Below are positions 5,739 to 7,703 of a stretch of DNA of 64,000 nucleotides, in pieces (the stretch's first letter is position 1; every line of letters begins with the position of its first letter). The stretch lies in assembly GCF_017348835.2 (NCBI RefSeq), contig NZ_CP071375.1. One strand, 5' to 3'. The notes under the pieces are model-generated. The model had not been told where the DNA came from and made no database searches. It saw only the letters and a program-made list of their open reading frames with translations. This DNA comes from Escherichia coli. GTDB lineage: Bacteria; Pseudomonadota; Gammaproteobacteria; Enterobacterales; Enterobacteriaceae. The translations under genes were made by a program, and so were the position numbers.

Positions 5739-7703
5739 TCAGGCGGCGGTGTTCGCCATACGTTGTTCGCGGTTTATCGCCTGCAAGGCGGAGACATCAA
5801 CAATCAGTGCCACGCTGCCGTCGCCAAGAATGGTCGCAGCAGAAATGCCGGGGACTTTGCGATAGTTACTTTCAAGGTTTTTAACTACAACCTGATGTTG
5901 ACCAATTAATTGATCCACCAGCAAGGCGTAGCGGCGACCGCCACTTTGTAAGATCACCACAATTCCCTGGGTAGCTTCGGTTTTCGCGCCCGCGACGTTG
6001 AACACTTTCCACAGTTCGACGATGGGCAGATATTCACCCCGCACTTCCAGCACCCGCTCGCCGCCGGCCAGTGGATGCAGATCGGCTTCACGGGGTTGCA
6101 GTGATTCCATGACAGCATTCAGCGGCAGAATGAAAACTTCATCCGCAACGCGTACGGACATGCCGTCGAGGATGGCCAGCGTCAGCGGCAGTAAAATGCG
6201 GATCGTAGTGCCAGTACCCTGTTTCGACTGGATTTCTACATGACCGCCCATCTCCTGGATATTACGTTTAACGACGTCCATGCCGACGCCGCGCCCGGAG
6301 ACGTCGGTGACCTGCTCTGCCGTGGAGAAGCCTGGTGCAAATATCAGCATCGCGACTTCGTCGTCGCTCATGTTTTCGCTGACAGTCAAACCTTGCGAGG
6401 CCGCTTTTGCCAGAATTCGTTCACGGTTTAGCCCCGCCCCATCGTCGGTCACTTCAATGCAAATGTTGCCGCCCTGATGTTCGGCAGAAAGAATTAAATT
6501 TCCTACGCTGTTTTTACCTGCGGCGAGCCGTTTTTCTGGCAGTTCAATACCGTGATCGAGGCTATTGCGTACCAGGTGGGTCAGCGGGTCGATAATGCGT
6601 TCAATCAGGCTCTTGTCGAGTTCAGTGGAACTGCCCACCAGCGTCAGTTCTACCTGCTTGCCGAGTTTTCCCGCCAGATCACGCACCAGCCGGGGATAGC
6701 GGCTAAAGACATATTCCATCGGCATCATGCGAATCGACATCACTGATTCCTGCAAATCACGAGCGTTACGTTGTAACTGCCCCATGCTGGTAATCAAATC
6801 ACCATGATTAACCGGGTCCAGTTCGCTGGAACGCTGGGCAAGCATGGACTGGGTGATAACCAGCTCGCCGACGAGGTTAATTAATTGATCAACCTTTTCT
6901 ACCGCTACACGGATACTGGTGGATTCACTGCTGCGCGTCGTTTTTTCCCGCTCCATGCGACCGGTTGGCGCTTGTTCGGCTGCCAGTTTAAGCACTGGTG
7001 GGGGGGATATTTTTGGCAAGACTTCTACTGTTTCAAAGGTAATCTGATCGGCTTCAATCACAAAACAGAGTACCGCTGTGATGTCATCTTCAGCGATATC
7101 GCCCGGTAATATTGCCGAGAGAGAATCCGCCCCTTTCACCACGTCAGTTAACGTTGTCAGATGCCCCAGCTCTTCTTCCAGCAGGTCGACTTCGCCGGCC
7201 TTCAGGCGCGAAAGGATAATTCGTCGCGGCAACTGACTGCGACTCTGCTCATCTTGCGGTTCACTTTTGGCAACCACACTTAATCGGGTCACTGCGGATG
7301 GCGTTTCGCCTTTCGCTTCTAATGCCAGTTGACGCAAGGCCTGGCAGATATAATCGAAGCTGGCGGCATCCGGCTCTTGCGACTGTTTATAAGCGTCGAG
7401 CTGTTCTTGCATGATGTCCTTCGTTTCCAAAAACAGATTGATAATGTCGGTGTTGAGTTGCATCTCACCTCGTCTGGCTTCATCGAGCAGGTTTTCCATC
7501 AGATGCGTGGTTTCCTGCAAAACGCTGAAGCCAAAAGTTCCTGCCCCTCCTTTGATCGAGTGGGCAGCCCGAAAGATGGCATTCAATTGTTCGGCATCTG
7601 GCGCTTCCGGCTGCAAAACCAGCAGATGCTGCTCCATATCAGCCAACAGTTCGTCCGCTTCATCAAAAAATGTCTGATAAAAATCGCTTATATCCATGCT
7701 CAC
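5739..7703 (-). CDS. cheA: Chemotaxis histidine kinase CheA (long form; GTG start)
   Basis: ORF track 5739..7757; known CheA N-terminus (V/M)[16 protein letters not shown] begins at the GTG at 7703..7701; P1-P5 domain order recognisable. An in-frame ATG at 7412..7410 is the known CheA-short start (MQEQLDAYK). Confidence 0.95.

Follow-up and report, generated by a model that had tools for sequence, protein, structure and literature searches.

The internal CheA-short start at codon 98 of cheA in an Escherichia coli genome and the synonymous constraint around it in Enterobacterales

The ATG at codon 98 of cheA, on the minus strand of a 64,000-nucleotide stretch of Escherichia coli DNA (contig NZ_CP071375.1 of assembly GCF_017348835.2; hereafter, the window), is almost certainly start(S), the second initiation codon of the E. 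coli cheA tandem-start locus. A preliminary description of this DNA was correct about the internal start, which is already known and ordinary for E. coli. Our comparison makes a small addition rather than a discovery: the strongest synonymous constraint in cheA, a methionine specific to Enterobacterales, and an E. coli Shine-Dalgarno (SD) sequence that is the minority form. For annotation, cheA here should be read as coding for two proteins, where RefSeq has one CDS only.

The cheA gene and its internal start

The reverse-strand read, the ORF list and the translation agree on a minus-strand gene that starts with GTG at 7703..7701, has its stop at 5739 and encodes a product of 654 amino acids (Table 1). 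The identical gene in RefSeq is annotated as cheA from the same GTG, in a neighborhood annotated as motA, motB, cheA, cheW, tar and tap. Pfam recognized all five domains in the order Hpt, CheY-binding, H-kinase_dim, HATPase_c and CheW. Hpt (P1) covers residues 8-100 (E = 1.6e-19), and the other four domains, all above cut-offs, cover residues 161-223 (P2), 261-324 (P3), 372-508 (P4) and 514-640 (P5). The first 140 residues, which hold P1, are 100% identical to the E. coli CheA chains PDB 6s1k_A and 8c5v_C, and His48 lies within the motif AAHSIKGG of the translation. The gene is E. coli cheA, with its P1-P5 architecture complete. The GAGGTGA ahead of the GTG, start(L), overlaps the motB stop codon TGA (7710..7708); PMC8745638, citing McNamara & Wolfe 1997, gives "gagguga" as the ribosome-binding site (RBS) of long cheA in E. 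coli.

Whole-gene megablast matched cheA in 5,380 of 5,426 complete E. coli genomes; identity over the whole gene was at least 99% in only 481 E. coli genomes, and strains PE164 and F2_81 carry a cheA that is 100% identical. The window and PE164 are collinear throughout, except for 3 substitutions and two 1-bp indels.

The preliminary description had placed Met98 at the ATG 7412..7410, and our read and translation bear out the coordinates, the residue number and the peptide that follows (QEQLDAYK). This ATG is in frame and downstream of the His48 codon. The claim that the short isoform has no His48 also holds, with the CAC at 7562..7560 lying upstream of the Met98 codon. CheA-short is without residues 1-97 and keeps the end of P1, followed by P2 to P5; in published structures, the retained end of P1 corresponds to helices D and E.

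Table 1. Features of the cheA locus and sigma-28 promoter-like sites, in window coordinates
Feature	Coordinates	Strand	Details and sources
CheA-long CDS	5739..7703	-	654 aa plus stop; ORF list, Pfam, RefSeq, PDB
CheA-short frame	5739..7412	-	557 aa plus stop; shares CheA-long frame
Codons 123-126 (L-R-Q-L), Leu123 and Leu126	7326..7337	-	Residues 120-128 are CQALRQLAL
Start(S) translation-initiation region, codons 88-101	7401..7442	-	Lowest synonymous diversity in cheA, Enterobacterales
Start(S), ATG codon 98, CheA-short initiation codon	7410..7412	-	Sequence, translation, PMC7696710, PMC7750401
GAAGGA, Shine-Dalgarno of start(S)	7417..7422	-	Within Thr94-Lys95-Asp96 (ACG AAG GAC); 4-nt spacer
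His48 codon CAC, phospho-accepting residue, CheA-long only	7560..7562	-	Translation
Start(L), GTG, initiation codon of CheA-long	7701..7703	-	Sequence, RefSeq, translation
GAGGTGA, Shine-Dalgarno of start(L)	7708..7714	-	Anti-SD duplex -7.2 kcal/mol
Sigma-28 (FliA) promoter-like site upstream of motA	9688..9714	-	One mismatch to TAAA-N15-GCCGATAA
Perfect sigma-28 match, tar	5128..5102	-	
Perfect sigma-28 match upstream of fliD	35923..35949		
One-mismatch sigma-28 match, flagellin	35830..35804		

CheA-S has been reported to initiate at ATG-98, without the first 97 residues, and mutations in codon 98 abolish it (PMC7696710, PMC7750401). The same account of CheA-S is found in PMC1447658, PMC3676780, PMC11005335 and PMC12350097. 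In the window, the 91 nt centered on ATG98 (7372-7462) are 100% identical to K-12 strains GM4792 and BW25113, and this segment is identical in 5336 of 5378 E. coli genomes. Over all of cheA, 34 nt differ from BW25113, none of them between -213 and +181 nt of ATG98, and the six amino acid differences (S158L, S229L, T234P, V250M, N259S and K484E) all fall outside P1. The locus thus matches the tandem starts of K-12 (CheA-L, 654 aa; CheA-S, 557 aa) in frame, ATG98, GAAGGA, His48, Leu123 and Leu126, and it differs from K-12 only where the start site is untouched. With the initiation region identical to that of K-12 and the ATG-98 start documented in PMC7696710 and PMC7750401, the site is, as had been said, the known one; with ATG98 and GAAGGA intact, it is also preserved. 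On this sequence evidence, both CheA isoforms would be expected in the source strain. For other Enterobacterales, PMC8745638 and PMC3676780, citing McNamara & Wolfe 1997, describe coexpression of long and short CheA at the level of the family.

The gene-wide rate predicts about 7 of the 34 differences from BW25113 in codons 28-157 (window 7233-7622), which contain none, so conservation within the species reaches well past the start(S) region.

Two colinear proteins are likewise made by means of an RBS within the coding sequence from infB (IF2 alpha/beta), clpA, ccmM and ssaQ (PMC11005335, PMC12350097). These genes are unrelated to cheA, and CheA-short differs in lacking a catalytic residue and having acquired a CheZ-binding surface.

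Ribosome binding and conservation at codon 98

The preliminary description had proposed that the lack of an RBS upstream of 7412 would speak against the start. GAAGGA was found there, 4 nt from the ATG, which is a short spacer. The 24 nt upstream of ATG98 read CTGTTTTTGGAAACGAAGGACATC, and PMC8745638 (citing McNamara & Wolfe 1997) gives "gaagga" as the RBS of short cheA in E. coli. SD energies were calculated by pairing the region from -20 to -3 with the 16S 3' end (ACCUCCUUA). The predicted anti-SD pairing at start(S) was -5.4 kcal/mol; the values at nearby starts were -7.2 for start(L), -5.5 for motA, -5.9 for motB and -3.9 for cheW. SD pairing at start(S) is comparable to that of the neighboring true starts of motA, motB and cheW. 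Among the start-like triplets in cheA, its energy ranks only 12th of 98, and SD strength alone is not distinctive for start(S). Local folding ranked the accessibility of the 30-nt initiation region 140th of 1935 positions in the window sequence, and the median fractional rank was 0.12 across 81 sequences (the window and the loci listed). We rejected local accessibility as the cause of the conservation described below; it is above average, but only moderate and not extreme.

We scanned one genome per species, which gave at least 80 Enterobacterales cheA loci from Enterobacteriaceae, Erwiniaceae, Pectobacteriaceae, Yersiniaceae, Hafniaceae and Morganellaceae. The genera sampled included Citrobacter, Enterobacter, Erwinia, Pantoea, Pectobacterium, Dickeya, Serratia, Yersinia, Hafnia, Edwardsiella, Photorhabdus and Xenorhabdus. 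The loci listed include no Salmonella DNA; Met98 of Salmonella was confirmed at the protein level only, in the P1 structure PDB 1i5n. The locus search employed six peptide patterns, among them ETKDIMQE, which biases the sample somewhat toward Met98 but not toward particular codons. With that bias, all 82 sequences in the alignment had ATG98 (the 80 loci listed, the window and L001, a duplicate of the window), and the 19-residue peptide at ATG98 was nearly invariant among the 80 loci listed.

As an outgroup, we took CheA clusters at 50% identity from a set of 1.8 billion proteins and used 150 diverse cluster representatives. The His48 position is occupied by His in 144 of the 150. At position 98, Leu was found in 95, Val in 19, Ile in 18 and Met in 9. 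Since the residue outside the group is mostly Leu, Val or Ile, Met98 is specific to the lineage and answers no general structural need. The alignment fits a swap, specific to Enterobacterales, of a generic hydrophobic residue for Met, as a start-codon role would predict. In the closest 50%-cluster representative (P0001; 720 aa, 59% identity), the sequence is ETKDMLDDQ and the Met falls at 97 instead of 98; the internal start of a relative may have shifted here.

Codon 1, the site of start(L), was GTG in 77 of the 81 orthologous loci listed and GTA in the remaining four, which belong to Photorhabdus and Xenorhabdus (L076-L079, positions 2501-2503). With GTA at codon 1, CheA-long must begin elsewhere in these genera; the probable site is codon 3, a conserved ATG, which would shift residue numbering by two.

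Synonymous diversity was measured at conserved degenerate codons as codon heterozygosity relative to the gene-wide mean for the same amino acid, in 11-codon windows. Among the loci listed, the lowest synonymous diversity in cheA was at codons 88-98 (rank 1 of 425 windows; deviation, -0.265), and the next independent region had a deviation of -0.089. None of 2000 amino-acid-stratified permutations reached -0.265, the lowest permuted value being -0.225. Synonymous diversity in the start(L) region was not unusual. The constrained block spans ∼42 nt, roughly from -30 to +12 around ATG98, an extent and placement that match a 30S binding site. These codon comparisons indicate that the start(S) region is under purifying, RNA-level selection at synonymous sites.

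The Enterobacterales consensus for codons 88-101 is AUC AAC CUG UUU UUG GAA ACN AAA GAU AUU AUG CAG GAA CAG. E. coli departs from it by five synonymous changes (AAT89, AAG95, GAC96, ATC97 and CAA99), which give rise to AAGGA and to a 9-bp stem in the predicted fold. The AAGGA motif is confined to 7 of 81 sequences: the window, L002 (also E. coli) and five other loci listed. The other Enterobacterales share ATG98 and mostly have AAA-GAT-ATT (AAAGAT), in contrast to AAG-GAC-ATC in E. coli (-5.4 kcal/mol); SD pairing is weak, at -3.3 kcal/mol, in 74 of the 81 sequences among the loci listed. Judged from these sequences, the textbook Shine-Dalgarno of E. coli is the minority form. Despite the weak pairing, most genera keep UUUUUGGAAAC strictly (L003-L081). 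Because pairing is weak in 74 of 81 sequences, SD strength alone does not explain the conservation, and UUUUUGGAAACNAAAGAUAUU, conserved in the other genera, is not accounted for by SD pairing. One tentative reading, to which we give limited credence, is that the block is an SD-independent internal-initiation element (for example, a U-tract and A-rich enhancer) or a target through which the CheA-L:CheA-S ratio is regulated. If either were true, the AAGGA of E. coli would be a derived replacement.

Other explanations for codon 98 and the constrained block

Could Met98 be nothing more than a buried hydrophobic residue of the P1 bundle, with its ATG unused here and AAGGA a by-product of Lys-Asp codons? 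Of 150 CheA sequences, 141 do have a hydrophobic residue (Leu, Val, Ile or Met) at position 98, and the SD energy of start(S), at rank 12 of 98, is unexceptional within the gene. We nevertheless regard this explanation as extremely improbable: the initiation region is identical to that of K-12, where codon-98 mutations abolish CheA-S (PMC7696710), the usual Leu is replaced by Met only in the Enterobacterales lineage, and the strongest synonymous constraint lies just upstream of ATG98, for which protein structure offers no explanation. Equally improbable is an origin of the short isoform from a promoter inside cheA, as a separate transcript, or from proteolysis of CheA-long. Two protein sizes by themselves cannot separate these routes from internal initiation, and the sequence lends neither of them support. 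We found no sigma-70-like sites on the minus strand at 7300-9800 and no sigma-28 matches inside cheA, the nearby ones lying only upstream of motA and tar, so that neither kind of site precedes start(S). [quoted passage not shown] Met81 (ATG 7463..7461, minus strand), as the start of the short form or an extra start, has somewhat more in its favor and is still very unlikely. It is preceded by GAGGTG (7471..7466), whose SD-like pairing of -7.2 kcal/mol is stronger than that of Met98, and 79 of the 81 sequences among the loci listed retain the Met residue itself. Against it, GAGGTG is only 2 nt from the ATG, the 15 nt upstream occur in 66 variants among the 81 sequences listed (median, -3.0 kcal/mol), and codon-98 mutations by themselves eliminate CheA-S (PMC7696710). 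We rejected the GAGGTG of Met81 as a chance feature of E. coli, since the motif is unconserved in orthologues.

A different question is whether the constraint on codons 88-101 reflects a hairpin, a site for an sRNA or protein, or an overlapping gene instead of ribosome binding at start(S). The fold predicted for the window joins codons 90-92 (CUGUUUUUG) to codons 99-101 (CAAGAACAG) in a stem that encloses the SD and AUG, at a mean pair probability of 0.94, and the block is conserved even though most genera are without a good SD. An sRNA, GlmY, is also reported to act on the cheA leader of Proteus, at the 5' UTR and not at start(S) (PMC8745638). The stem itself fared poorly in the comparison. 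It was predicted (>0.5) in 21 of the 81 orthologues listed, with a median probability of 0.15; there were no compensatory changes, shuffle controls were equal, 8.75% of synonymous recodings match it, and the consensus fold of the region across orthologues reached only -1.84 kcal/mol. The 9-bp hairpin enclosing the SD and AUG was therefore rejected as a conserved feature, being absent in most orthologues and having no covariation support. Rfam families gave no match at 7200-7800, even at E <= 1. The block, at ∼42 nt centered on the ATG, has the size of a 30S site and is too short for an overlapping gene. Taken together, we consider these alternatives to ribosome binding at start(S) unlikely, although less so than the alternatives to the start itself.

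CheA-short function and the flagellar surroundings

[quoted passage not shown] Without CheA-short, the half-maximal serine concentration is 4.3-fold higher and distance-dependent motor switching is lost (PMC7696710). According to the literature, CheA-short, lacking His48, cannot be phosphorylated or autophosphorylate, yet it dimerizes and enters receptor arrays. PMC7750401, citing Cantwell 2003 and Hao 2009, reports that Leu123 and Leu126 of CheA-S contact CheZ. The window begins inside cheB, with cheZ just outside; in the near-identical strain PE164, residues 95-100 of CheZ are DDWFAD. Judging from PE164, CheZ of the source strain likely carries the Trp97-Phe98 apical-loop motif that binds CheA-S. 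A preprint on ribosome profiling with retapamulin (10.1101/520783) has no mention of cheA in its text.

These features fit together as follows. A single transcript that begins at the sigma-28 promoter ahead of motA can carry two in-frame initiation sites: GTG 7703 with GAGGTGA, giving the 654-aa kinase CheA-long with His48, and ATG 7412 with GAAGGA, giving the 557-aa CheA-short. According to the literature, the exposed N-terminal segment of CheA-short, with Leu123 and Leu126, binds CheZ, and this binding concentrates and stimulates the CheY-P phosphatase at the receptor cluster. By tethering and activating CheZ at the array, CheA-short makes the removal of CheY-P sharper.

The site at 9714..9688 is the sole candidate promoter that we found for the motA-motB-cheA-cheW transcript bearing both starts. 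Across the whole window, sigma-28 consensus matches with up to 2 mismatches numbered 22, against 5.7 expected, an excess that fits a flagellar regulon cluster. The Rfam sRNA C0465 matched at 5118-5195 on the plus strand (111.6 bits), in the cheW-tar spacer and antisense to the tar sigma-28 promoter match. By the PE164 annotation, window 33715-35727 would hold a 670-aa flagellin gene and 42688-43827, which lies between yedK and fliE, the gene of a leucine-rich-repeat protein, both on the minus strand. Finally, dgcQ (57799-59508, minus strand) and yedA (61015-61935, plus strand) are intact ORFs here and "frameshifted" in the PE164 record because of 1-bp indels. The dgcQ indel was read directly as AAAA in the window (within 58174-58177) versus AAA in PE164. 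The indels in PE164 dgcQ and yedA are probably assembly errors or very recent mutations.
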